From contig CAYXNZ010000001.1 in the NCBI GenBank assembly GCA_964467155.1, positions 4,070-68,069 of the forward strand: 64,000 nucleotides of DNA, given 5' to 3'. Numbering within the stretch: position 1 is the first letter of the stretch; every line of letters begins with the position of its first letter. The stretch comes from an uncultured Gammaproteobacteria bacterium. GTDB lineage: Bacteria > Patescibacteriota > Patescibacteriia > Patescibacteriales > GWC2-42-12. A program made the position numbers and the translations under genes. Below, one piece after another: positions 32,101 through 64,000 of the stretch. The notes under the pieces are model-generated. The model searched no databases. It worked only from the letters and a program-made list of their open reading frames with translations, and had not been told where the DNA came from.

Positions 32101-33064
32101 AGACGATATTACTCAGGGTTTGCCAAGAGTTGAAGAAATTTTTGAAGCGCGTATTCCAAAAAAACGAGCTTTTATTGCCGACGTTGCTGGTAAAATACAA
32201 ATTGAAACAGCTGAAAGAACTATCGAAGGTGAATTTGGTGACATGGTAGTCATTAGCACGCAAACAAAAATATTAAAGATTTATTATACAGGTGAAGAGA
32301 CAGATAAATATGCCTTTAATGAAATAATGAAAGAAGCTGGCTTAAAAAAGAGTGATAAAGTTGATATGAAAGTTATAGTTAAGAACGAAGAAGAAATAAG
32401 TAAAGGGTCAGCACTTCTCAGTTTGGGTGATAAAATTATTAAAGCTAAACGAGGCGGAAAAGTTAAAGTAGACGATAAATCCATCAAGATTACAACTGAA
32501 GCTGAAAAGGTAAAAGAATTCATCGTGCCAAAGAGTTTTAATATTTGGGTAAAGGATGGAGACATGGTTGAAGTAGGTGATCAGCTCACAGAAGGCAGTC
32601 TAGATCTTCAGCAATTATATAAATTGCGTGGTCGTTTAGCAACTCAGAAATACATAATTAAGGAAATTCAATACGTTTATTCATCTCAAGGACAGCCTCT
32701 GAATGATAAGCATATTGAAATAATTGCAAAACAGATATTTTCTAGAATTCACATATTAGATGAAGGCGATACAGGTTTATTATCAGGTGAAATAATTGAG
32801 AAAGCTGTTTTTGAGAAGACTAACAGAGAAGCAAAAAAAGCAGGCAAAAAACCAGCCAAAGGCGAGTTATTATTGTTAGGTATAACTAAATCTTCTTTAA
32901 CAACTGACAGCTTTTTGTCTTCAGCTTCATTTCAAGAAACAGCTAGAGTATTAATTGAAGCAGCAGTGACTGGTAAAGTTGATCATTTGATTGGCTTGAA
33001 AGAAAATGTGATAATTGGACGGCCGATTCCAGCTGGAACTGGTTTTAAGATTAGTAAAGAATAG
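29135..33064 (+). CDS. rpoC: DNA-directed RNA polymerase subunit beta'
   Basis: It has the zinc-binding CxC...CxxC, the catalytic NADFDGDQMAVH, the trigger loop and bridge helix. A coiled-coil lineage insertion lies near aa 140-300. Confidence 0.98.
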   Translation: MLNPIKTTDFDAIKLKLASPEEILSWSHGEITRPETINYRTQKPEKEGLFCEKIFGPSKDWECYCGKYKKIRYKGIICDKCGVEVTRSAVRRERMGHIKLEAPTTHIWFLRGTSSKIGLILDMTMQALEKVVYFASFIISEVNEDLRQATLDQVKQEFKLKKKSIESEFTKQTSEIKNKKGKFKNEGKDEAEIGEIITQEIDSLETVKNEKIQKLEQALDQAQKELKELKPMAVISETAYQNLSLKYGHIFTAGIGAEAIRKLLEDIDMDKTISALEKELTVCIDSKKEKLVRRLKLLKNLRATEINPAWMVMTVIPVIPPDLRPMVPLDGGRFATSDLNDLYRRIINRNNRLRQLIELNAPEVICRNEKRMLQEAVDALIDNSIRHGKTVVASTGQKRMLKSLADSLKGKQGRFRQNLLGKRIDYSGRSVIVVNPSLKLGECGLPKRMALELFKPFIISKLIKQEIVHNVRSASRYIESGKEEVWDILEEIVKKSYVMLNRAPTLHRLGIQAFRPILIEGLALQIHPLVCTAFNADFDGDQMAVHLPLTEEAVAEARDIMLATHNLLKPATGDPVVAPNQDIVWGAYYMTGLQSEKDENKLKCFSSETEAKLAYSLKKIGLRQLVKVKIGKEIMDTTVGRVIFNEVLPDKLRYVNEVAGKNKVKDIVKKCLRLYGEDTTVKLLDDIKTNSFKYITQSGLSWGIGDLVDFKEKDELIEKANKEAEKIEEQYEEGLLTKSERFGKIIELWTNTKEKVTEICRKELPRDGSIFSMIDSGARGSWAQLTQVLGMKGLVTSPSGEIIELPIKCNFKKGFSVLEYFIATHGVRKGLSDTALRTSNAGYLTRRLVDVAQDVIVVKEDCGDKEGLVINKIESEEMSSSVIKRITGRYLVDDLKNVKGKVLVKVGELVTEEIVEKISKEDIEEAKTRSVLSCKLERGICAKCYGYDLAYNKAVKLGVSAGTIAAQSIGEPGTQLTMRTFHTGGVAGQDDITQGLPRVEEIFEARIPKKRAFIADVAGKIQIETAERTIEGEFGDMVVISTQTKILKIYYTGEETDKYAFNEIMKEAGLKKSDKVDMKVIVKNEEEISKGSALLSLGDKIIKAKRGGKVKVDDKSIKITTEAEKVKEFIVPKSFNIWVKDGDMVEVGDQLTEGSLDLQQLYKLRGRLATQKYIIKEIQYVYSSQGQPLNDKHIEIIAKQIFSRIHILDEGDTGLLSGEIIEKAVFEKTNREAKKAGKKPAKGELLLLGITKSSLTTDSFLSSASFQETARVLIEAAVTGKVDHLIGLKENVIIGRPIPAGTGFKISKE

Positions 33065-33104
33065 AATAATTATAATTTGTTCTTTTATATATAGAACAAA
33101 AAAG

Positions 33105-33136
33105 GCGTCTCAGCTTAAACTGTGGCGTCTTTTTTG
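33105..33136 (+). terminator. probable rho-independent terminator after rpoC
   Basis: gcgtctcag pairs with ctgtggcgt (one mismatch, one GU), followed by T6. Confidence 0.4.
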
Positions 33137-33145
33137 GTTACTTTT

Positions 33146-33175
33146 TGTCATACCGGACCACGATCCGGTATCCAG
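33146..33175. repeat. family-1 half element (left arm only)
   Basis: tgtcataccggaccacgatccggtatccag closely matches the left arm at 8786-8816. No right arm is present. Confidence 0.7.
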
Positions 33176-33202
33176 AAAATATTTTGATATTTTTAGTAAT
33201 AA

Positions 33203-34120
33203 TTATTTTAGATTGTATTTTACTATATTATTTTCTGCCAATTCCTGAATGTATTCTATTTGTTTTTTCCCTCGTTCGGTTTTAAAAAGATGATTAAAAC
33301 GACCTTGTAATTTTAAGTATTCCTCAACTCTTGGTTGATTTTTTGGTGTTTTAATACTTTTAGACAGATTGCCATTTATATATTCAACAGCGGGGTAGTG
33401 ACCTGTTTGAGCAGCTAATTTGGCGACCTTAATTGTTTGATTTGGTTCAATCTTCCAGCCGGGAATACAAGGTACTAATATTTGCAAGTAAGACGGGCCA
33501 GGTGTGTTGATAGCTTTTTTTACCTTTTCAGTAATATCTGCCAGATAACCAGTTGTAGTTTGAGCAACATAGTTTAATCCATGTGCTAGAGCAATCGCTA
33601 GCATATCTTTTTTCCTCAAATGTGAGCCAATTGCATCAATAGTTTTCCCTTTGCCTGATGGTGTGGTGGTGGTGTGAGCACCCCACGGAGTGGCAGTACT
33701 AGCTTGCATGCCAGTATTCATATAAGCTTCATTATCATAACAAACATATAAAATATTTTCACCGCGTTCCCACATACCGCTGATTAAACCAAAGCCGATA
33801 TCAAAAGTTCCACCATCACCTCCTTGAACAACAACCTTTACTTGTTTTTCTTTTTTTTGTTGTTTTAAAGCAGCTGAAATACCAGAAGCAACAGCTGAGG
33901 CATTTTCAAACAGAGAATGAATCCAAGGCATTCCCCAGGCTGATTGTGGATATGGCGTTGAGACAACCTCAAGACAGCCAGTGGCGTTAGATATAATAAC
34001 ATTTGGTCCAAGCGCTTCGGCAACTGTTCGAGCAGCAATGGCTTGTCCGCAACCAGCACAAGCTCGATGTCCAGGCGAAAAGAGAGGTCGTTTAATTGAT
34101 TTTGTTTTGTTTTTTGGCAT
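33203..34120 (-). CDS. porB: 2-oxoacid:ferredoxin oxidoreductase, beta (TPP-binding) subunit
   Basis: PGHRACAGCG, GDGGTFDIGF and a TPP-binding pattern are present. The substrate is not determinable from sequence. Confidence 0.85.
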   Translation of the reverse strand: MPKNKTKSIKRPLFSPGHRACAGCGQAIAARTVAEALGPNVIISNATGCLEVVSTPYPQSAWGMPWIHSLFENASAVASGISAALKQQKKEKQVKVVVQGGDGGTFDIGFGLISGMWERGENILYVCYDNEAYMNTGMQASTATPWGAHTTTTPSGKGKTIDAIGSHLRKKDMLAIALAHGLNYVAQTTTGYLADITEKVKKAINTPGPSYLQILVPCIPGWKIEPNQTIKVAKLAAQTGHYPAVEYINGNLSKSIKTPKNQPRVEEYLKLQGRFNHLFKTERGKKQIEYIQELAENNIVKYNLK

Positions 34121-34141
34121 GCTATTTATAATTATTATTTT

Positions 34142-34354
34142 TTAATTTAATACCGGAATAGTTTTTTTTATATCTTCAATATTTTTTATTTTATTAAATT
34201 GACCTTTGAATTTAGAAGCATTTAATATTTCAATTAAAACTGGTTTTTTATTTTTTGATAAATGAATAATAAAATTACCAAGCTCAATTGCATGATCAAT
34301 TGAATCTTCTGTTATCTCCCAACTCAAAATGTCCGCTTCAATGTCGTAATCCAT
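34142..34354 (-). CDS. DUF2283-like small protein (putative antitoxin-like)
   Basis: MDYDIEADILSWEI...VLIEILNASKF matches the DUF2283 pattern from memory. Confidence 0.5.
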   Translation of the reverse strand: MDYDIEADILSWEITEDSIDHAIELGNFIIHLSKNKKPVLIEILNASKFKGQFNKIKNIEDIKKTIPVLN

Positions 34355-34385
34355 GATATTTGTATTATGTATTTAGTATAATGTA

Positions 34386-34760
34386 TTAAGTATTATTTCT
34401 TAAATATTTAATCAATCCGTTAATTAACTTATGAACGACAACTGTTAATTCTGCTATTTTATCAAATTTATTTTGATCAACATACCCAATATCTAAGGAA
34501 ATTAATAATTGATTTTGTAATTCAGTTAATGAGCCTTGAGCAATATAATAAAATTGCATTTTTTCTTTCGGTGATTGTCTGCTAAAACCTTCAGCGATAT
34601 TTGAAGTTATCGAAACTGCAGCTCTTCTGATTTGGTTAGTTAAGCCGAACAATTCTTCTTTAGGAAAATCTTTAGTTATTCTGTAGATTTCTATGACTAA
34701 TTTATGCCCCTCTTTCCATGCGTTAAGATCAGTAAAAGATTTAATTTTATTATTATCCAT
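34386..34760 (-). CDS. four-helix-bundle protein (23S rRNA intervening-sequence protein family, TIGR02436-like)
   Basis: FTDLNAWKEGHKLVIEIYRITKDFPKEE...QIRRAAVSITSNIAEGFSR...AQGSLTELQNQL. Confidence 0.85.
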   Translation of the reverse strand: MDNNKIKSFTDLNAWKEGHKLVIEIYRITKDFPKEELFGLTNQIRRAAVSITSNIAEGFSRQSPKEKMQFYYIAQGSLTELQNQLLISLDIGYVDQNKFDKIAELTVVVHKLINGLIKYLRNNT

Positions 34761-34780
34761 AATACTTTATACAAAATACA

Positions 34781-35002
34781 TTATACATTTTTGATTGGGT
34801 AAAAAGTAATTATTTTTACAGTGTCCGATTCTTTAGTGTAAATGACACCAATATTTTCTTTGTGTGATATTTGATAAATTGATTTTTTGCTAGTCTGGTC
34901 AGGCACGTTAACAGCATCTTCTATTTGCTCACGGGTGAAATAAACCTTATGTTTGTTTAATGTAGTGAATTTATTTTCAGCGTATTTGGTGAAATAAAGC
35001 AT
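34781..35002 (-). CDS. DUF4258-like small protein (putative toxin-like)
   Basis: It is about 73 aa with a YAENKF...VKIITFYP pattern. The assignment is tentative. Confidence 0.4.
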   Translation of the reverse strand: MLYFTKYAENKFTTLNKHKVYFTREQIEDAVNVPDQTSKKSIYQISHKENIGVIYTKESDTVKIITFYPIKNV

Positions 35003-35020
35003 AAACTCATAATTTAAAAA

Positions 35021-35776
35021 TTATTTATTGGGGCATCCTTCAATTTCACTACACGCTCTTGCATCAAAAACTACATATGGAGACCATGCTTTGCAGTCTG
35101 CTTCTGTGTCTTTTTGAACACATTGACTTATCTTGTCGACCTTATATTTTTTGCAGCAACCCTTAACTTCTATGGCACATTTTTTTGCTGTTGAATCCCA
35201 AAGAGTGCCTTCTCCTCCCCAACCATCCTTAGCTAGTCGATCACATTCAGACCTAGTTACATAACTTTTTCCATTATTTTCATCTATTTTACAACACCCG
35301 ACAACTGTTTTGTTAACTACTGTTGTTTCTATTGGTTTAAACTCAACCAGATTGGGGTTAACTGTATAGAGAATCATGTAAGAGCAGAGAGCCAAAACTA
35401 GACCAGACAATGAAGCAGCTATCCAAGATTTAGCGCTACTGATTCGCTCGTTATTACCGCCAGCCGTAATCCACAGTACTCCGCCAAACATTAAAACAAC
35501 AGCTGCTAATATGCCAACAATGCCTATGGCATATTTATAAATTGCAACGATGTATTTGCTTAATAATGTGCTCTGTAATTTGTCTCCAACTTTTTTACTG
35601 ACATCGTAAGTACCGGTTGTTTTAAAATCATCACCAATTCCAACTTGTGGTTTAAATTGTATTGGGGCCGCCTGAACAGTTTGAGGAGAGCTGATAATAC
35701 AAATTAATCCAACTAATTGAAAAGCAAAAATAAGTAGGAAGGATACAGCTATAATTTTTGGCAACTTGTTGTGCAT
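35021..35776 (-). CDS. VirB2/TrbC-like T4SS pilin family protein fused to a C-terminal cysteine-rich domain
   Basis: It has a signal peptide ending VQA and two TM helices around the loop (AIGIVGILAAVVLMFGGVLWITAGGNNERISSAKSWIAASLSGLVLALCSYMILYTVNP), typical of the CPR pilin family. Ten Cys then follow in about the last 90 aa, with two GCCK motifs. Confidence 0.65.
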   Translation of the reverse strand: MHNKLPKIIAVSFLLIFAFQLVGLICIISSPQTVQAAPIQFKPQVGIGDDFKTTGTYDVSKKVGDKLQSTLLSKYIVAIYKYAIGIVGILAAVVLMFGGVLWITAGGNNERISSAKSWIAASLSGLVLALCSYMILYTVNPNLVEFKPIETTVVNKTVVGCCKIDENNGKSYVTRSECDRLAKDGWGGEGTLWDSTAKKCAIEVKGCCKKYKVDKISQCVQKDTEADCKAWSPYVVFDARACSEIEGCPNK

Positions 35777-35802
35777 AGGTTTTTTAAATTTCTAAATTAT
35801 AA

Positions 35803-35810
35803 ATTATAAT
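35803..35810 (-). promoter_or_regulatory. candidate -10 box (ATTATAAT) for the pilin gene
   Basis: attataat lies about 27 nt upstream of ATG 35776 on the minus strand. This implies a promoter internal to the oxidoreductase operon. Confidence 0.3.
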
Positions 35811-35894
35811 ATCTAATAAATTTTTACTTTGATTTTTTATTTCGTGAATTTTTAATTAATTAACAGTACTTACGTATATTGAAGATTTACAAAT

Positions 35895-37037
35895 TTATCC
35901 AATAAATTCTAATTTATCTTTATTTTTTTTAACATCAGTGATAATATTTTCAATCATTTTTTTTGTGATATCACGACCACCGAGACCGACAATGTAATTT
36001 TTTATTTTTACTTTAATTTTTCCTTGAGCAGTTGCCATGATATCTATGCCCAATGGTCCAGAGCTACCCAGAGAGATAGCTTTGTCTAATACAGCGATAT
36101 ATTTTGCTTTATTAATGACGGATAAAATGGCTTCTTCTGGGAATGGACGATAACATTTTATTTTTAATACACCAACATTTTTTTCTGATTTAATTGTATC
36201 TTTAATTGTACCAACTACCGAACCCATGGCAACAATAATTGTTTTTGGATTTTTCGGACCAGAATATTCTATTAAACCATTGTTATGATTTGAATTCTTG
36301 GTTTTAAATATTTTTTGAAAGTTATTGTATTCCTTATTGATTGTTTTTTGACTATCCGTTAATTTGTCGTGCAAATCTTGGCGAATATCCATGTAATGCG
36401 TTGGTGTAGCCAAATAACCCATAGTAATTGGGTTCTTTGGGTCTAAATATTCATTAGTTTTTGGTTTATAATTAGGTAAATATTTTTTTATTTGTTTTTC
36501 TGTCGGTATATAAACTGGTTCATACGAATGAGTTAAAATAAAACCATCAACATTAACCATGACTGGTAATTTCAGTTGCTCGGCAAGTTTGTAGGCCATA
36601 ATATGTTGGTCAACAGCTTCTTGATGATTTTCTGAAAATAGCATAATCCAGCCAGCGTCTCGGACAGTCATGGCGTCTTGATGATCATTCCAGATACTAA
36701 TTGGAGCTGATATGGCTCGATTAGCACAAGTTAAAACAATTGGCAAACGCATGCCAGCGATATTAAAAATTACCTCAGCCATCAGAAGTAAACCTTGTGA
36801 ACTAGTGGCAGAATAAGTACGAACTCCAGTTGCACTAGCACCAGCGACAATGGAAGCAGCAGCAAATTCTGATTCAGCGCGAACATATTCATAGTTGGCT
36901 TCACCGTCAGCTTTAAATTTTGCCAAGTCTTCTACGATATGAGTTTGCGGAGTGATTGGATAAGCGGATATTACATTTGGTTTTATGTTTTTTATTGTTA
37001 GAGCAATTGCTCTTGAACCTTCTAAAATTTGTTTCAT
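35895..37037 (-). CDS. porA: 2-oxoacid:ferredoxin oxidoreductase, alpha subunit
   Basis: The N-terminus EGSRAIALTIKNIKPNVISAYPITPQT and a transketolase-like pyrimidine-binding domain are present. Confidence 0.85.
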   Translation of the reverse strand: MKQILEGSRAIALTIKNIKPNVISAYPITPQTHIVEDLAKFKADGEANYEYVRAESEFAAASIVAGASATGVRTYSATSSQGLLLMAEVIFNIAGMRLPIVLTCANRAISAPISIWNDHQDAMTVRDAGWIMLFSENHQEAVDQHIMAYKLAEQLKLPVMVNVDGFILTHSYEPVYIPTEKQIKKYLPNYKPKTNEYLDPKNPITMGYLATPTHYMDIRQDLHDKLTDSQKTINKEYNNFQKIFKTKNSNHNNGLIEYSGPKNPKTIIVAMGSVVGTIKDTIKSEKNVGVLKIKCYRPFPEEAILSVINKAKYIAVLDKAISLGSSGPLGIDIMATAQGKIKVKIKNYIVGLGGRDITKKMIENIITDVKKNKDKLEFIG

Positions 37038-37046
37038 ATAATGTTA

Positions 37047-37115
37047 TGTCATTCCCGCGAAAGCGGGAATCTATTTTTTAAATTATTCTGGATTCCCGCT
37101 TTCGCGGGAATGACA
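37047..37115. repeat. family-1 element between porD and porA
   Basis: tgtcattcccgcgaaagcgggaatc ... ggattcccgctttcgcgggaatgaca forms a near-perfect 25-nt inverted repeat. Confidence 0.85.
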
Positions 37116-37149
37116 AGTTTTTTATTTTGATTTTATATTTGCATTATTC

Positions 37150-37440
37150 CTACTTTTTTTCTAATTTCATAATAATAGCTTTGACTGGACATTCCTCCGC
37201 ACATAAACCACAACCCTTGCAATAATTAAGATCAACTTTGGGTTTTAGTTTTCCATTAGTTAATTCCATTTTTATAGCACCCTCTGGACAGAGTCGAGAA
37301 CAGGTCCCACAACCAATGCATTTATCAAAATCAAATTCAGGTCGATTAGTCCGCCAACCACCAGTTTTGTTTTTTTGAGCAGAAGCTGGATAAACTTTTA
37401 AATTTATTTTATTTTTCATAAACTTTATAAGCTTGTTCAA
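37150..37440 (-). CDS. porD: 2-oxoacid:ferredoxin oxidoreductase, delta subunit (2x[4Fe-4S] ferredoxin)
   Basis: CIGCGTCSRLCP and CKGCGLCAEECP motifs are present. Confidence 0.85.
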   Translation of the reverse strand: MNKLIKFMKNKINLKVYPASAQKNKTGGWRTNRPEFDFDKCIGCGTCSRLCPEGAIKMELTNGKLKPKVDLNYCKGCGLCAEECPVKAIIMKLEKK

Positions 37441-37960
37441 TCGCTTTAATATTTTTATTAATAATGATATTACCTTTGTCTTTAAATTTTTCCTTGATAG
37501 CTAATTTTAAAGACGCTAAGCTAACTAGATTTGTAATCTTGGCAAAAGCACCTAGTATGGTGGTATTAACAATATTTTTACCGATAATATCTAGAGCAAT
37601 AGTAGTAGCATCAATAGCGAAAATATTTTCTTTGGGTAGTTTAATTTTTAATTGATTAGTTTTTTTTGCTGTGTTGATTATCACTTTAGTTTTTTCTGAA
37701 CAACCAGTTGACACATCAATAGCATCAAGCAGAGAAGCATCTTGAATAACCAAAATATCTGGTTCATAAATATGTTCACGAGTATTGATTGGTTGATTAT
37801 CAATTCTAACAAAAGATTCGACTGGTGCGCCAGTTCTTTCGACACCAAAAGATGGAAAAGCTTGTGATTGCTGACCGTCCTTGAAGGCAGCGATAGCGAT
37901 TAATTCAGCGGCAGTAACTACGCCTTGTCCGCCTCGCCCATGGATTCGTATTTGGATCAT
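37409..37960 (-). CDS. porG: 2-oxoacid:ferredoxin oxidoreductase, gamma subunit
   Basis: The N-terminus MIQIRIHGRGGQGVVTAAELIA is typical of the gamma subunit. The ORF-track start at 37975 uses an ATG supplied by the tgtcat terminus of the adjacent repeat, so 37960 is preferred. The gene overlaps porD by 32 nt. Confidence 0.8.
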   Translation of the reverse strand: MIQIRIHGRGGQGVVTAAELIAIAAFKDGQQSQAFPSFGVERTGAPVESFVRIDNQPINTREHIYEPDILVIQDASLLDAIDVSTGCSEKTKVIINTAKKTNQLKIKLPKENIFAIDATTIALDIIGKNIVNTTILGAFAKITNLVSLASLKLAIKEKFKDKGNIIINKNIKAIEQAYKVYEK

Positions 37961-37969
37961 AATTTTATT

Positions 37970-38069
37970 TGTCATCCTCGACTTGATCGGGGATCCAGAA
38001 AGTTGTAATATCGGTAAATGGTAAATCTCTAGATTCCCTCCGCCAGTTGGTGGATTCGCGGGAATGACA
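37970..38069. repeat. family-1 element upstream of porG
   Basis: tgtcatcctcgacttgatcggggatccag ... agattccctccgccagttggtggattcgcgggaatgaca. Confidence 0.75.
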
Positions 38070-57521: not shown

Positions 57522-57568
57522 GTCTGAACCACTGAAGCACACTGAAAAAACTGAATTACACTGATAAA
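57522..57568. repeat. left inverted repeat flanking the GxxExxY gene
   Basis: gtctgaaccac is followed by reiterated cac(a)tgaa units. It is the partner of 57964-58010. Confidence 0.65.
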
Positions 57569-57660
57569 TATTGAAAATTATGGATTATATTGATGATAAA
57601 TAGTATAAGTCGGATATTACGGCAAAAATAATTAAGGGCGCTTATCAGGTACATAATAAT

Positions 57661-57963
57661 TTGGGTATTGGTTTTCAGGAAATAATATATCAAAGAGCAT
57701 TAGCAATTGAGCTTGGTGAATTAGGATTGAATTTTGAAAGAGAAAAAGAAATGTTGATATTTTATAAGGAATTAGAAATTGGTCAGAGAAGAGTAGATTT
57801 TTTAGTAGAGGATGATATTATGGTTGAATTAAAAGCTTTGGTGCAATTGGATGATGTTCATATAGCTCAATTAATGAATTATATTGAAGCTTACAAAACA
57901 AAGGTTGGTTTGCTTATAAATTTTGGAGCCAAGAAATTGGAAGTAAAAAGATTTATTAAATAA
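57661..57963 (+). CDS. GxxExxY protein (PD-(D/E)XK-like, IVS-associated family); N-terminus interrupted by an in-frame TAG at 57601
   Basis: GFQEIIY, RVDFLVEDDIMVELKA and LLINFG are present. Family-typical residues (ITAKIIKGAYQVHNNLG) continue upstream of the TTG start, back to a TAG that follows ATG 57580. Confidence 0.75.
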   Translation: MGIGFQEIIYQRALAIELGELGLNFEREKEMLIFYKELEIGQRRVDFLVEDDIMVELKALVQLDDVHIAQLMNYIEAYKTKVGLLINFGAKKLEVKRFIK

Positions 57964-58010
57964 ATCATGTGTTTTCAGTGTATTCATGTGTGAATTCATG
58001 TGGTTCAGAC
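57964..58010. repeat. right inverted repeat flanking the GxxExxY gene
   Basis: The reverse complement reads gtctgaaccacatgaattcacacatgaatacactgaaaacacatgat. Confidence 0.65.
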
Positions 58011-58601: not shown

Positions 58602-61055
58602 ATGTTAAAAAATATAAAAAATAAAATTGATATCAAGAAGCATGCCATTTTATTAATAGTTACTTCTTGTTTCGTTGTATCAGTTATTTTTTTTATACCT
58701 TCTATCGTAGAAGCGACAACATCAGATTTAATAAGCGGTACTGTGGGAGTGGCTGTGGCAACAGTAATCGGCTGGATAACGTCCATATTGTCTGCCATAA
58801 TCGGTTTAATACTAACTTTATTGATAAAAATTTTAGTTAATGTAGCTCAATTTAACAATATAATAAATGTGGAAGCGGTATCACAAGGATGGAAAATAGT
58901 TCGTGATTTGTGCAATATGTTTTTTATACTAATTTTATTAGTTATTGCCTTTGCGACTATTTTAAAATTGGAAAATTATAGTGTTAAAAAACTATTGCCG
59001 AAGTTATTAATAATGGCAGTATTGATTAATTTTTCAAGAACTATTTGTGGTTTGATAATAGATTTTGGACAAGTGATAATGCTTACTTTTGTTAATGGTT
59101 TTGGTGACCATGGCGTTAATAATTTTATAAATTTATTTAATATACAAAATTATCAAAGAATATCTAGTAGTTTAGGCGATAAAAAGGTGTCTAATTTTTC
59201 AGTTGCAGGTGCCTTTATTGCTGGTTTAATAGCCATGATAATAACTACAATTGTTGTTTTAATGATGTTAGCAATTCTTGTTATGAGAATAATAATGCTA
59301 TGGGTTTATACAATTTTATCTCCACTCGCTTTTTTGGCTTCTGCTTTTCCAGCTGGGGCAAAGTATGCCCAGCAATGGTGGGGTGAATTTACAAAACAAG
59401 TTATAGTTGGACCAGTGTTGGCATTTTTTATTTGGTTAGCATTGACAACTGCACAAAAATCGTCTACAGCATTAGGTACTTTTGGTGCAGGAGAAGGTTT
59501 GGATGGTCAGGCTTGTGCTGGCATAAATGCCTTTTTTTGCGAAGGTAATTTACAGACATATATAATAACAATAGGTTTATTGGTTGGTGGTCTTATGGTG
59601 GCTCAACAAATGGGTAGTATAACAGGAAATATTGCTGGAAAAGGGTTGAGTTGGGCAAAGGGAGTTGGAAGAGGTCTAGGAAAAGGTTCGTTGGTGGGAC
59701 TGGATTGGGTAAACAGAAAACAGGCGTCTGGTAAAAGAGGAGCAGGAATTGATCTTAATCCTTTTCGACAAGCTGAAAGGATTAAGGCATCTCTTGATAG
59801 AAGTAAAGCAAAAGATTTAGATGATGTTGAAGACAAAGGTAGTGCTCGATTAAAAAAAGGAGGGTGGACAGGGGCGGTTGGTGGATTTACCGCTGCCGGT
59901 TGGGGTGATCAGCATTTGAGAGGATTTTTAGGATACAAGGGATTAATGTCAGCCGTGAGAGGTAATGAAGATAATGTAGGGGAATGGAGAAAAGAAGAGA
60001 AAGAAAACAAATGGATGGCAGAAAATGCTGGAGATAGTTATACAAAAAATTTAAGAGGATTAATTCATAATAAAATTAATGCTAACGCGGCTGGCGATGA
60101 AGATGCTGTTCAAAAATATACTGACGAAATTCTAAAATTAAATAAAAATAAAAAAGAATTAACTAGCCATAACGCCGAGTATTTTACAAAAAAACAAACA
60201 AAAGCCGCAAATTTAGCTGCCAAATATGAAGTTAGAGATTACGAAGGAGGAAAAAGAAGACGTACTGCTGAAAACGAAGAAAGAAGCAAGATTACTTCAA
60301 AAAACGAAGATGAACTAATAGCTCAATTTGGAAATGCTATTTCTCATAACAATAAATCTTTGACTGGGGCATTAGCTAAGGCAATAACTGAAGTGGGTGG
60401 TGGTAACGCATTGTTAAAAAAATATGGTTACCAAGCTACGGCTGGCTTAACTGAAGATGAAGCGAAGGGTAAATCAGATAAAGAGATTATGGATAAAAGA
60501 GGTTTGAATGACTTTATGAGAGATATTTTTGAAAAAAAATTAGGATTAGATAAACAAAGCACATTGGCTTTGCAGAGTGATTTAGGCGGAATTGGTGAAG
60601 CAATAGGACATGATTATTTAATAAAAACGGTTGGTGTTGATGATCAAGGTAGATTTTACCAGAACAACGAAAAAGACAGAAATCGTGTAAAAACAGAAGA
60701 AAAGATTAAGAGAGAACCAGAAGGTGTAATAAGAAAAAATAATCGTTTAGAATATGGAGCCGAAGATATTCATACGGGTGATTTTAATTGGTCAGACTCT
60801 GGCTTAGCTACTTTTATTTCTAATATTGATATGGTTAATAAAGAAATAGATGGTAAAAGATTTAATCGTAGTGCTGCTCAGGCAATTACCCAAGATGATT
60901 CTATGGCTAAATTAATGCAAAAATTGCAACAGCTAAATATTAAGAAAATACAAACTAAAGAAGGGCACTCTATTTCTTTGAAGGAATTTACAGATAAACT
61001 TAATGCCTACGGAAAACAAGCTAGTACAGATCAATTAGACAAGCTGTTGGCTTAA
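58602..61055 (+). CDS. polytopic membrane protein, VirB6/TrbL-like, with a ~450-aa soluble C-terminal domain
   Basis: It has a signal-like N-terminus and about 6-7 TM helices with TrbL-like spacing (LCNMFFILILLVIAF, LLIMAVLINFSRTICGLIIDFGQVIMLTF). A charged C-terminal region follows. The assignment is by resemblance only. Confidence 0.45.
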   Translation: MLKNIKNKIDIKKHAILLIVTSCFVVSVIFFIPSIVEATTSDLISGTVGVAVATVIGWITSILSAIIGLILTLLIKILVNVAQFNNIINVEAVSQGWKIVRDLCNMFFILILLVIAFATILKLENYSVKKLLPKLLIMAVLINFSRTICGLIIDFGQVIMLTFVNGFGDHGVNNFINLFNIQNYQRISSSLGDKKVSNFSVAGAFIAGLIAMIITTIVVLMMLAILVMRIIMLWVYTILSPLAFLASAFPAGAKYAQQWWGEFTKQVIVGPVLAFFIWLALTTAQKSSTALGTFGAGEGLDGQACAGINAFFCEGNLQTYIITIGLLVGGLMVAQQMGSITGNIAGKGLSWAKGVGRGLGKGSLVGLDWVNRKQASGKRGAGIDLNPFRQAERIKASLDRSKAKDLDDVEDKGSARLKKGGWTGAVGGFTAAGWGDQHLRGFLGYKGLMSAVRGNEDNVGEWRKEEKENKWMAENAGDSYTKNLRGLIHNKINANAAGDEDAVQKYTDEILKLNKNKKELTSHNAEYFTKKQTKAANLAAKYEVRDYEGGKRRRTAENEERSKITSKNEDELIAQFGNAISHNNKSLTGALAKAITEVGGGNALLKKYGYQATAGLTEDEAKGKSDKEIMDKRGLNDFMRDIFEKKLGLDKQSTLALQSDLGGIGEAIGHDYLIKTVGVDDQGRFYQNNEKDRNRVKTEEKIKREPEGVIRKNNRLEYGAEDIHTGDFNWSDSGLATFISNIDMVNKEIDGKRFNRSAAQAITQDDSMAKLMQKLQQLNIKKIQTKEGHSISLKEFTDKLNAYGKQASTDQLDKLLA

Positions 61056-61068
61056 TAATTTAATAAAC

Positions 61069-61920
61069 ATGGATACAAAAAAAATATTAAAAGAAGTTGA
61101 AGAAGTCATAAAATTTGATGAGGTGAATACTGCTCATCAGTTTATTGTTGAATTGGAAAATTATTCTAAAACAAATGAATTCCAAAAACAGGATTTAAAA
61201 ATACAAGAGAGTATAAAAAAAATAATTACGCAATTAAAATGGGTGGCTTTACCTTATTGTTTTGAAAAAGATATCTTAGAGATGTTCAGTAGTCATTTTC
61301 AAATTGCTTTAGAAATGGAGTATTTTGATATTTGGGATAAAATTAAAAACACTTTAGTGGCAATTATTCTTCACGAAGATAGAGATAAATTTAAACAACA
61401 AATAAAAAAAATAATAGAAAGAAATAAAGCAAAAATATCCAAAGATAAATTAAATAATAGCATTGAACCAACAGTGGAAAATTGGATAAAAAAATATAGT
61501 GGTTATATTGGTCTAGGGGTAGCTGATAAATTAAAATTTAATCAATTTATTGTTAACGACATAGACATAAAAAAATTAGATGGAATTTATAAAAAAAATG
61601 TTATAGATTTCTTTAAATTTTATGAAAAATTAAAATTATCTTCTCTAACTGTTGTAGGAATAGAAGAATCAATTCCAGTTAACACCCCACAATTCAAAGG
61701 ATATATTAGAGATGGGAGATTGGAAAAAGAAACAAAATTAAGTCCAGAAATTCAAAAAATACTTGATGTTGTTAGTGCAGGAGAAGATGCAACAATTGAA
61801 ATAGCCGTAGATAAAGACGGTAATAAGAGCAGTTTGCAACAATTATTACAAAATTATCCCGAAGGAAGTCTGGAGAGACGGGCAATTGAAGAGGAAATGA
61901 AGAAAATTTCTAAATTATAA
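61069..61920 (+). CDS. hypothetical soluble protein
   Basis: 283 aa, helical and charged, with no recognised motif. Confidence 0.45.
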   Translation: MDTKKILKEVEEVIKFDEVNTAHQFIVELENYSKTNEFQKQDLKIQESIKKIITQLKWVALPYCFEKDILEMFSSHFQIALEMEYFDIWDKIKNTLVAIILHEDRDKFKQQIKKIIERNKAKISKDKLNNSIEPTVENWIKKYSGYIGLGVADKLKFNQFIVNDIDIKKLDGIYKKNVIDFFKFYEKLKLSSLTVVGIEESIPVNTPQFKGYIRDGRLEKETKLSPEIQKILDVVSAGEDATIEIAVDKDGNKSSLQQLLQNYPEGSLERRAIEEEMKKISKL

Positions 61921-61946
61921 TGTCTAATTACTAATTTAAAAAGTAA

Positions 61947-62312
61947 ATGAGCGTCAATGGTAAGAAGTATGATTTAGAAGAGCGAACTGCAATTTTTGGT
62001 GAAAATATAATAAATTTTACTAAAAAATTACCAAAAAATATTATTACTAGCTCAATAATTAGCCAATTAGTTAAGGCGAGTACTAGTGTCGGGGCAAATT
62101 ATTGTGAGGCTGATTGTGCTGAAACAAAAAAAGATTTTGAACATAAAATAGGAATTAGTAAAAAAGAATCAAGAGAATCAAAACATTGGTTAAGAATGAT
62201 AGCCATGGCAGTGCCAGAAATAAAAAATGAAGCTAGAATATTATGGAAAGAAGCCAATGAATTAAATTTAATATTTATAGCTATTGTTAATAATTCTAGA
62301 AAGAATAGTTAA
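61947..62312 (+). CDS. four-helix-bundle protein (23S rRNA IVS protein family)
   Basis: YDLEERTAIFGENIINFTKKLP...QLVKASTSVGANYCEA...ESRESKHWLRM. Confidence 0.8.
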   Translation: MSVNGKKYDLEERTAIFGENIINFTKKLPKNIITSSIISQLVKASTSVGANYCEADCAETKKDFEHKIGISKKESRESKHWLRMIAMAVPEIKNEARILWKEANELNLIFIAIVNNSRKNS

Positions 62313-62353
62313 GTTTTATTTTTTAGAAATTATAATTTAGAAATTATAAATTC

Positions 62354-63754
62354 ATGCTTGGTTATTTAGAAAAATACAATCAATTATCTCAGGAAATTCG
62401 GGATAAGGTTTCAACGCCGGCAATCATGTCGGCTATTGATGATTTGGAAAAAAAATATGGCGTTGATTTAGCACCGACGATAATGAAAGTAATGGTTAAG
62501 GATATCGATTTGAATAATGTTTTACAGATGCAAAAAGAATTAAGTATTGACGAAGTAACTGTTTTGGATTTAGTTGGCGAGTTAAAAGAGCAAATTTTTA
62601 GTGAGGTAGCTGACTATTTGGGGTTAATTAAAAAAGTTTCAGAAGTAGCACTAACTCAGAGTAGTCAAGCTAAAGAAAAGCCAAAAGTTATGTCAGACGA
62701 GATAAGGAAAAATGCTAATTTATTTTTTTCGTCAGAAGATGAACGTGAAATTATGGAATTGTCTAAAGTGGCAGGAAAAATTGATTTACAACCAGCCATT
62801 AAAATATCCGATCAACTCGATAATATAATTGCTAAATTACAGATTAATTTTGGTTCAGATGATTTGAGAAATAGATTTAGGCAAATTATGGAGACATATT
62901 TAAAAGGTATTAGAAGTAGCGTAGAAACCAAACAAGCATTGATTAAATCTTTTGAATCGGGTGGACTGGGTTTTGATGAAGAATCTGTTGATAAAATTGT
63001 GGCGATTGCTAATGATAATTCAAAAAATATAGGTGAAATAAAAATAAAAGTACCAGAGAAAATAAAAACATTAGACACGGAAGAAGAAAAAATTGCTAGC
63101 TTAAGGCAAAGTGGTATTAGAGATGTTGAATATGATTTAGCTAGTGAATTAAAGAAAAAAGAAAAAGAAACTCAAAAACAAAAGAATACAGAAATTGATG
63201 TTAGTCATGAATTAGCGCCACCACCACCAGCTAAAATAATAACTCCTCATAAAATTAAAATTACTGAGCCAAAAAATACAATGCCCGTTCCGTCAGAAAC
63301 AAAAAAGGCAGAAACACAAAAGACGCAAAAAACAATCATTAAACCAGATTTTTCAATTAAACCTAAAGCTAGAATAGTTCAGAGAAAAGAAGGGAAAATA
63401 AAAATGGAGGACGTGAAACAAATGCCAAAGGTTATGAGTCCGATTGATGAATTAAAATATATGGACTTAACTAATTTTCGTCGACTAGGCGAGACTCCAG
63501 AGGCTATTATAGAGGAAATTAAAGAAAGATTATTATTGCTTGAAAATGACAATTATGCAAAAAGATTAGAAGGAGTGAAAGCTTGGCGGAATAGTCCAGT
63601 TAATAAATTATATTTGAGTATTGGGCAAGCCAGCATTAGCGAGAATAAGGCGATTGATGATATAATAGAAGAACAGAAAAAGCAAAATAAAGAAATTTTA
63701 ACTAATCAAGAATTTAAAGCCATCATGGATCTAAACAGAAGCTTGCGTTTCTAG
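62354..63754 (+). CDS. hypothetical protein with a central K/P-rich linker
   Basis: 466 aa with no TM helix and no recognised motif. Confidence 0.45.
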   Translation: MLGYLEKYNQLSQEIRDKVSTPAIMSAIDDLEKKYGVDLAPTIMKVMVKDIDLNNVLQMQKELSIDEVTVLDLVGELKEQIFSEVADYLGLIKKVSEVALTQSSQAKEKPKVMSDEIRKNANLFFSSEDEREIMELSKVAGKIDLQPAIKISDQLDNIIAKLQINFGSDDLRNRFRQIMETYLKGIRSSVETKQALIKSFESGGLGFDEESVDKIVAIANDNSKNIGEIKIKVPEKIKTLDTEEEKIASLRQSGIRDVEYDLASELKKKEKETQKQKNTEIDVSHELAPPPPAKIITPHKIKITEPKNTMPVPSETKKAETQKTQKTIIKPDFSIKPKARIVQRKEGKIKMEDVKQMPKVMSPIDELKYMDLTNFRRLGETPEAIIEEIKERLLLLENDNYAKRLEGVKAWRNSPVNKLYLSIGQASISENKAIDDIIEEQKKQNKEILTNQEFKAIMDLNRSLRF

Positions 63755-63791
63755 TTAATTAGGGCTTGGTTAATTAGGGATTAGTCTAATT

Positions 63792-64000
63792 ATGTCCAAT
63801 AAAATAAAGGGGATTGAAAATTTTAAAATATATAAACTAGCTGAAAGATTAGAAATATTTATATACAAAGTTACTAAAAAATTTCCTATTGAAGAAAAAT
63901 ATAGAAGCATTGATCAGCTGAGGAGATCATCTGCTTCTGCGAGCGAAAATATTTCGGAAAGTTATCACAGATATCATTATAAAGATAAGATTAACAGGAT
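63792..64000 (+). CDS. four-helix-bundle protein (23S rRNA IVS protein family), 5' partial at window end
   Basis: Manual translation gives MSNKIKGIENFKIYKLAERLEIFIYKVTKKFPIEEKYRSIDQLRRSSASASENISESYHRYHYKDKINR... It is not in the ORF track because it runs off the window. Confidence 0.75.
   Translation, partial: MSNKIKGIENFKIYKLAERLEIFIYKVTKKFPIEEKYRSIDQLRRSSASASENISESYHRYHYKDKINR

Follow-up and report, generated by a model that had tools for sequence, protein, structure and literature searches.

Intervening sequences (IVSs) that carry an open reading frame (ORF) are known from the 23S rRNA genes of Leptospira. In REPIN-RAYT systems, inverted copies of a short repeat lie on both sides of a single gene, and this repeat is also dispersed through the same genome as many ORF-less inverted doublets between genes; the RAYT protein is an HUH/Y1 (IS200-like) transposase, and the REPIN repeats are repetitive extragenic palindromes (REPs). 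The heptanucleotide repeats of cyanobacteria are known as short tandemly repeated repetitive (STRR) sequences. We analyzed a 64-kb stretch of Patescibacteria (candidate phyla radiation, CPR) DNA with a G+C content of 33%, hereafter called the window (public records name close homologues of its proteins as Patescibacteria), in which a PF05635 gene (positions 34386-34760) is bracketed by inverted arrays of heptamers. We consider it likely that this gene and its arrays form an IVS-type foldback cassette, inserted in the sense orientation into a spacer between co-transcribed protein-coding genes of the porA to porB run.

In Coxiella, tandem GACAGAT heptamers precede the start of the S23p ORF of the IVS, and the 28-bp terminal stem is cut by RNase III in vitro (PMC4990558). 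PF05635 genes have also been reported in rRNA insertions of CPR bacteria (PMC11270868) and between cas genes, where their presence was read as a functional link (PMC3936711). In Xanthomonas, GGGAATC repeats with a period of 7 occupy intergenic operon spacers, most commonly as four units and often as convergent pairs (~186 copies per genome, 70-75 convergent inverted pairs), and were studied as G-quadruplex formers (Rehm et al., PMC4692102). They were described there as not associated with mobile elements, and neither xcc0516 nor accB is mentioned.

The assignment of the 34386-34760 gene to PF05635 by profile search is secure (Pfam E 3.9e-39; TIGR02436 E 8.3e-38), and the nearest solved structure is that of the Xanthomonas campestris protein XCC0516 (2GSC, an entry with five chains; E 1.5e-21). 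The cassette shares with rRNA IVSs the ORF family (PF05635/S23p), terminal inverted repeats that enclose the ORF, and heptamers placed right before the start codon. However, it lies in the sense direction between two protein-coding genes and not in a helix of the 23S or 16S rRNA; no rRNA match was found within 33000-36000, and no Rfam family matches the locus. A second difference concerns the ORF itself. The ratio of nonsynonymous to synonymous substitution rates (dN/dS) among close PF05635 copies is 0.05-0.07, which indicates strong purifying selection and a functional protein, whereas the Coxiella ORF is reported to be decaying and is probably not translated.

The avd genes of diversity-generating retroelements encode proteins of a homologous fold family, but the cassette protein scored below both cut-offs (31.5 versus 40 bits for bAvd and 25.8 versus 80 bits for NF033474). 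Neither a reverse transcriptase nor a template/variable repeat pair was found in the cassette neighborhood, which contains no uncharacterized ORF of reverse transcriptase size, and the identification as Avd was rejected.

The minus-strand gene order at the locus is porA, a type IV secretion system (T4SS) pilin-like gene, a gene for a 73-aa protein, the PF05635 gene, a DUF2283 gene, and porB. The two arms of the cassette form an ungapped inverted repeat of 36 nt (34361-34396 versus 34752-34787), with 30 of the 36 positions complementary. An earlier annotation of this stretch, made from the letters alone (the original prediction), had already described inverted repeats around the gene, at the price of an indel that turned out not to be needed. 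The inverted-repeat score of the flanks was 21, a value not reached in any of 3000 flank shuffles (shuffle maximum 16), and the next best gene in the window scored 11.5; the complementarity is far above that of both shuffled AT-rich sequence and real-sequence controls. Within the 64 kb, the pattern ATACnnnATACnnnATAC was found in the two arms only, and an equal number of matches was obtained in none of 100 shuffles. The 5' arm, read on the coding strand, supplies the 73-aa gene upstream with its last two codons and its stop, and at its other end it reaches into the cassette ORF, over the ATG and the initial codons. The 3' arm spans the final codons and the stop of this ORF and terminates 2-6 nt ahead of the ATG of the DUF2283 gene.

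The same flank analysis was then applied to a census of 80 Patescibacteria loci (homologues with 62-80% identity, from one-genome-per-species contigs), of which 79 had flanks that were scored. The median score was 15 for the 79 homologues and 6 for 296 neighboring ORFs of the same loci (Mann-Whitney p = 7e-35). A score of at least 12 was reached by 77% of the PF05635 homologues and by 3.4% of the neighboring ORFs, and most of these high-scoring control ORFs are themselves four-helix-bundle genes.

The arms of the census loci are always built of heptamers; GAATnnn, GTATnnn, and GTAGnnn are common upstream, their complements stand downstream, and a typical array has four units. Three or more 4-mers spaced by exactly 7 nt were present in the 5' arm at 61 of the 80 loci (mode, 4 copies). 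At 45 of these 61 loci the core of the 5' arm recurs as its reverse complement in the 3' arm, versus 16.8 expected when arms are swapped among loci. The consensus heptamer is G-W-A-K-n-A-w, in which position 2 is A or T in a proportion of about 50:50 among loci, with the arms of one locus agreeing in 95%. Homologues that are 65-71% identical to the CPR protein were also found in contigs labelled as DPANN archaea (L034, a Woesearchaeota metagenome-assembled genome, with GAAT arms) and as Poribacteria (P0112), which could be explained by horizontal spread or by mis-binning.

The spacers that hold the cassettes are mostly 10-50 nt long, so that a cassette has hardly any space for a separate promoter or terminator, and 69 of 77 cassettes are co-oriented with both neighbors, versus 59% of control triplets (p = 2e-7). 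As a rule, the cassettes of the census are inserted into short spacers within co-directional runs of genes. Of 79 cassette genes, 15 are preceded by Shine-Dalgarno-like motifs, as are 7 of 73 neighboring genes, a feature that is uninformative in these genomes.

These data bear on two readings that can be set aside. Weak AT-rich inverted repeats are frequent in a window of 33% G+C (100 pairs were listed), and complementarity could in principle arise by chance in such spacers; the shuffle controls and the family-wide signal speak against it. An invertible, phase-variable segment is contradicted by the uniform orientation of the cassettes, 90% of which are sense with both neighbors rather than mixed, and no recombinase gene was found nearby. 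We regard the probability of either as negligible, and both were rejected.

Comparison with relatives revealed filled, empty, and remnant sites. The order in relatives is porA, the pilin-like gene, in some cases an extra gene, a 71-aa gene, DUF2283, porB, and rpoC. The 71-aa gene and DUF2283 are only 4 nt apart in L091, where the arrays are absent, in agreement with the proposal that the two genes would be adjacent without the cassette; their order is also kept in L087, L089, and L090. The closest relatives, L087 and L089 (87% and 80% identity in the small protein), lack the cassette ORF and carry a solo ATACnnn array exactly at the position of the downstream arm of the window, beside an unrelated GC-rich hairpin element. 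In the spacer of L090 (3217-3373), an ORF-less foldback was found, with inverted arrays of CTTATTTAT units and a period of ~9 nt instead of 7. L006, L008, and L014 are filled at the same site as the window, L014 with GAAT-type arms and a protein of a different clade. Finally, L007 has a cassette between atpG and atpD that shows 90% nucleotide identity to that of L008, the identity being confined to the ORF and arms, and in this operon an ORF-less foldback that shares the TGTAT core occupies the spacer from atpD to atpC. Extra AT-rich sequence in L008 moves the downstream array (2300-2365) ~40 nt away from the stop codon, a sign that the arms may receive secondary insertions or undergo turnover of their arrays.

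In one conserved operon, adjacent 3-nt spacers hold different cassettes on two Nostoc plasmids, and each filled spacer has a clean empty counterpart on the other plasmid; the empty sites read TAG-GTT-ATG and TAA-TTT-ATG. These filled/empty pairs show that the arrays belong to the insert and that both flanking ORFs are intact. The arms are thus part of the inserted unit: they fill the spacer, supply the upstream stop codon, and abut the downstream start codon. The position of the cassette is not fully conserved, and these sequence comparisons lead us to infer an inserted cassette that can move or be lost. Together with the L007 copy and the co-orientation in the census, the filled and empty sites support in substance the original prediction that these small genes behave as mobile cassettes in operon spacers.

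It is very unlikely, in our opinion, that the PF05635 gene is instead a stable host gene, acquired once and vertically inherited, whose flanking hairpins are regulatory or terminator-like. Such a gene would account for the site shared by L006, L008, L014, and the window, for the invariant arms of five population contigs, and for the strong purifying selection on the ORF. It would not account for the near-identical ORF and arms in the atp operon of L007, the empty and remnant sites in close relatives, the different cassettes in adjacent spacers of sister Nostoc plasmids, or a protein that is 65-80% identical across very divergent CPR lineages.

Inverted termini, which contain subrepeats in foldback elements, ORF-less short forms, insertion polymorphism, and copy homology that ends at the arms are also features of foldback transposons and of MITEs (miniature inverted-repeat transposable elements). 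The arms could thus be the terminal inverted repeats of a MITE-like DNA transposon, with the small ORF as cargo and a transposase provided in trans. However, no target-site duplication was found in three filled/empty comparisons (the window versus L091 and the two Nostoc junctions), in which the fuzzy arm boundaries leave room for very short ones. No transposase adjoined any locus examined; near 34386-34760, neither a recombinase nor a transposase was present among the called genes, and the sole ORF of the element encodes the 124-aa four-helix bundle. The absence of a transposase and of a target duplication argues against a classical DDE transposon. In addition, the ends bound by a transposase are conserved, whereas the termini here consist of tandem arrays that vary in sequence among close copies, and insertion is precise to the single nucleotide in stop-start spacers of down to 3 nt. 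A MITE-like element is therefore an improbable explanation.

Under the reading that we prefer, an IVS-type foldback cassette within an operon, the arms would act at the RNA level. When the transcript of 34345-34800 was folded, the minimum free energy and centroid structures both paired the arms around the ORF, with the AUG within the stem; the predicted stem is ~25 bp long and imperfect, with single mismatches at every seventh position. The cassette is probably transcribed by read-through of the host operon, because the spacers are short and made of repeats. The arms would then pair in the transcript, as in the modeled fold, looping out the ORF and burying its AUG. If rRNA IVSs are a guide, this stem is probably a substrate of RNase III, the evidence for excision by this enzyme being that from the rRNA copies; cleavage would set the ORF RNA free and divide the cistrons on either side of it. 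As for the spread or loss of the cassettes, the guess that we favor is recombination at the DNA level, or gene conversion, among heptamer arrays, those of ORF-less foldbacks included, possibly aided by the encoded PF05635 protein; such recombination would require no transposase and is compatible with the data.

Several observations weigh against this reading, or against parts of it. The same-site insertions of L006, L008, and L014 are old and stably inherited in some lineages, and the heptamer copy number is invariant, with identical arms, among five metagenome contigs carrying an identical gene; the common site and the identical arms show that movement is rare. Among plasmid-borne homologues, one is flanked by direct arrays (L094) and one by none (L102), and three cyanobacterial copies are antisense to their neighbors. 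Mismatches that would be G:U in the sense transcript were not significantly more frequent than A:C mismatches (42 versus 30 at 62 loci, p = 0.19), a comparison that does not separate pairing at the RNA level from pairing at the DNA level. The arm mismatches cluster at heptamer positions 5 (39%) and 7 (28%), which suggests a constraint on the motif rather than purely on pairing. A stem alone also leaves unexplained why the 7-nt period is conserved while the sequence is free; a further factor could be recognition by a ring-shaped protein, or slippage and gene conversion that homogenize both arms. Lastly, cutting the mRNA between cistrons could be costly to the host.

A tentative alternative, compatible with the stem and its cleavage by RNase III, is that the heptamer arrays are binding sites of the encoded ring-shaped protein, serving autoregulation or array propagation in a REPIN-RAYT-like manner, in which a genome would hold one master copy with the ORF and many foldbacks of the same heptamer without it. 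Such an arrangement would be consistent with the 7-nt period, conserved across phyla while the sequence varies, and with typical arrays of 4-5 units, given that the PDB entries of homologues contain five chains and that XCC0516 is a reported homopentamer (PMC4990558). The constraint at motif positions 1-4 and 6, and not at all paired positions, points in the same direction. Moreover, ORF-less inverted heptamer foldbacks are common in the census loci (25 in 635 kb, by a strict criterion) and in 8 of 15 cases their core is that of the local cassette, versus 4.6 expected (P = 0.04). The dispersed Xanthomonas repeats described above, with the same sequence as the arms, also fit. On the other hand, array binding by the protein is putative only, and protein clades do not follow the core classes (GAAT, GTAT, or GTAG): protein identity is 64% within classes and 62% between them. 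No internal residue column tracks the heptamer core cleanly; covariation of protein and core was not found, and sequence-specific recognition gains no support from this comparison. Cyanobacterial arrays vary from 4 to 14 units, and the 64-kb window has no ORF-less foldback of the inverted-heptamer type.

The comparison with REPIN-RAYT systems has limits as well. The likeness is one of layout and lies in the single flanked gene and in the dispersed ORF-less inverted doublets, which were observed in Xanthomonas and the CPR loci and not in the 64-kb window, the part of this genome that was covered. The cassette protein differs from a RAYT in being a small four-helix bundle with no recognizable nuclease or transposase fold (among Pfam and NCBIfam models, matches were obtained only to PF05635, TIGR02436, and related models), and its repeats are tandem heptamer arrays and not single REP palindromes.

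The foldback cassette is not restricted to Patescibacteria. Of 13 homologues carried on plasmids of cyanobacteria, Riemerella, and Azospirillum, 11 are flanked by arms of inverted heptamers, and the sites of the 13 include spacers between ribonucleotide reductase subunits, parA/parB, cas6/cas4, and cmr2/cmr3. The homologue with direct arrays, from a Pseudanabaena plasmid, lies between cas6 and cas4 with (AAAGCTA)x14 upstream and (AAAGCCA)x10 downstream, and is an exception to the foldback rule. In Azospirillum, the L107 copy is found inside a 23S rRNA gene and has (GACRGAN)n arms that closely resemble the Coxiella IVS repeats. In Xanthomonas, homologues of XCC0516 are located between accB and accC, with inverted GGGAATC arrays as arms; this repeat is identical to the dispersed one described in PMC4692102, a paper that draws no link to PF05635. 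Cyanobacterial GGGGAYT repeats likewise resemble cassette arms and occur with a period of 7 in intergenic operon spacers. At the level of sequence, the same gene-plus-array module is thus present in several bacterial phyla and in unrelated operons.

The features of the locus and of two further copies in the window are listed in Table 1.

Table 1. Coordinates of the cassettes, their arms, and neighboring genes in the window. Arms are named as read on the coding strand; TRF, Tandem Repeats Finder.
Feature	Position	Strand	Remarks
PF05635/TIGR02436 four-helix-bundle ('23S rRNA intervening sequence protein') ORF, cargo of the cassette	34386-34760	-	124 aa
5' arm, ~4-5 GTATnnn heptamers	34752-34789	-	TRF period 7/14, pattern matches, inverted repeat
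3' arm, 5 ATACnnn heptamers	34357-34396	-	TRF period 7/14, pattern matches, inverted repeat
DUF2283, downstream host gene	34142-34354	-	70 aa; Pfam 28.9 bits versus cut-off of 23
Upstream host gene, faint DUF4258/BrnT-like	34781-35002	-	73 aa; homologues mostly 71 aa
porA	35895-37037	-	
T4SS-pilin-like gene	35021-35776	-	
porB	33203-34120	-	
Second PF05635 cassette ORF	61947-62312	+	121 aa, divergent subfamily; Pfam E 2.9e-13; between two type IV secretion-like cluster genes
5' arm of second cassette	61905-61927	+	Overlaps upstream gene end; 22/23 complementary to 62323-62345
3' arm of second cassette	62323-62345	+	14-nt unit equal to two heptamers (TRF 62322-62349)
Third PF05635 cassette ORF, runs off window end	63792-64000	+	Pfam E 1.9e-15; 123 aa in contig L097 (6846-7217)
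5' arm of third cassette	63752-63792	+	ATTAGnn repeats, TRF period 15

Both additional genes that had been attributed to the family are indeed PF05635 members, and the motif said to precede them, GTCTAATTA, has exactly two occurrences in the window, one immediately ahead of each copy. The second copy is flanked by inverted repeats as proposed, but the weak AT-rich pair described earlier is replaced by the 23-nt arms given in Table 1. When the third copy was completed from contig L097, it showed (ATTAGnn)n and (nnCTAAT)n arms with 20 of 26 positions matching. The two cassettes are interleaved with the genes of a locus previously taken for a surface locus, which is a type IV secretion-like cluster (TrbL_3, PrgI, TraC-like, and VirB4/TraG-type ATPase) that runs from 58602 to 64000 and beyond into L097, downstream of the gene for a 2521-aa protein. 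A 100-aa PDDEXK_3 (PF13366, GxxExxY-type) gene at 57661-57963 separates this giant protein gene from the next gene, and short tandem repeats stand on either side of it (57530-57577 and 57965-58002). The idea that GxxExxY genes behave in the same manner found no support here: no inverted repeat flanks the gene in the window (score 6), although one such gene in L021 scored 14.

Concerning the host genes, a putative toxin-antitoxin-like pair, the labels of the original prediction were only partly retained. DUF2283 scored above the cut-off, whereas the DUF4258 likeness of the upstream gene is faint: the 73-aa protein has no Pfam match even at E<=1, and among 31 homologues weak matches were found to DUF4258 in 6 (best E 0.0099) and to BrnT in 4. 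Some homologues with 60% identity carry the NCBI name DUF4258.

The pyruvate:ferredoxin oxidoreductase run (gamma, delta, alpha ... beta; 33203-37975) is itself interrupted, as the T4SS-pilin-like membrane protein gene and the small two-gene pair intervene between porA and porB. This arrangement is kept in relatives (L090 and L091), some of which add a gene of 328-358 aa. GC-rich hairpin elements of the form TGTCAT-(stem-loop)-TCCAG are also conspicuous in this AT-rich DNA (window 33140-33180; L087 300-360 and 420-470; L089 240-330). Examples are GTCATACCGGACCACGATCCGGTATCCAG, between rpoC and porB in the window, and GTCATTCCCGCGAAAGCGGGAATCCAG in relatives. They look like a separate family of small dispersed repeats or terminators.

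In a literature search of incomplete coverage, we found no published description of a PF05635 gene with inverted heptamers outside rRNA, or of a link between this family and heptanucleotide repeats, the closest being the Coxiella paper (PMC4990558). A gene-plus-repeat module located between protein-coding genes thus appears to be undescribed.

It is conceivable, and we offer this only tentatively, that PF05635 genes and heptamer arrays constitute pan-bacterial mobile elements without a transposase, of which the rRNA IVSs would be the first to have been noticed. The heptanucleotide repeats of Xanthomonas, cyanobacteria, and Patescibacteria would then be their non-autonomous foldbacks, and the ring-shaped protein would recognize the arrays and be responsible for maintaining, spreading, or processing them, a relationship similar to that of RAYTs and REPINs.

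The nature of the rRNA intervening sequences with their S23p ORFs, and the abundance of intergenic heptanucleotide repeats in cyanobacteria, Xanthomonas, and other bacteria, have been puzzling for ~30 years. Our data tie both puzzles to a single module, made up of a PF05635 ORF and inverted arrays of heptamers, that is placed with nucleotide precision between the cistrons of essential operons, including por, atp, accBC, ribonucleotide reductase, parAB, and cas. Flanking heptamer arrays can also mislead repeat and CRISPR finders, and PF05635 genes in cas or defense loci may be hitch-hiking cassettes rather than functional partners. Both puzzles become testable in tractable organisms: a crystal structure of the Xanthomonas protein is available, and the repeat cognate to it has now been identified.

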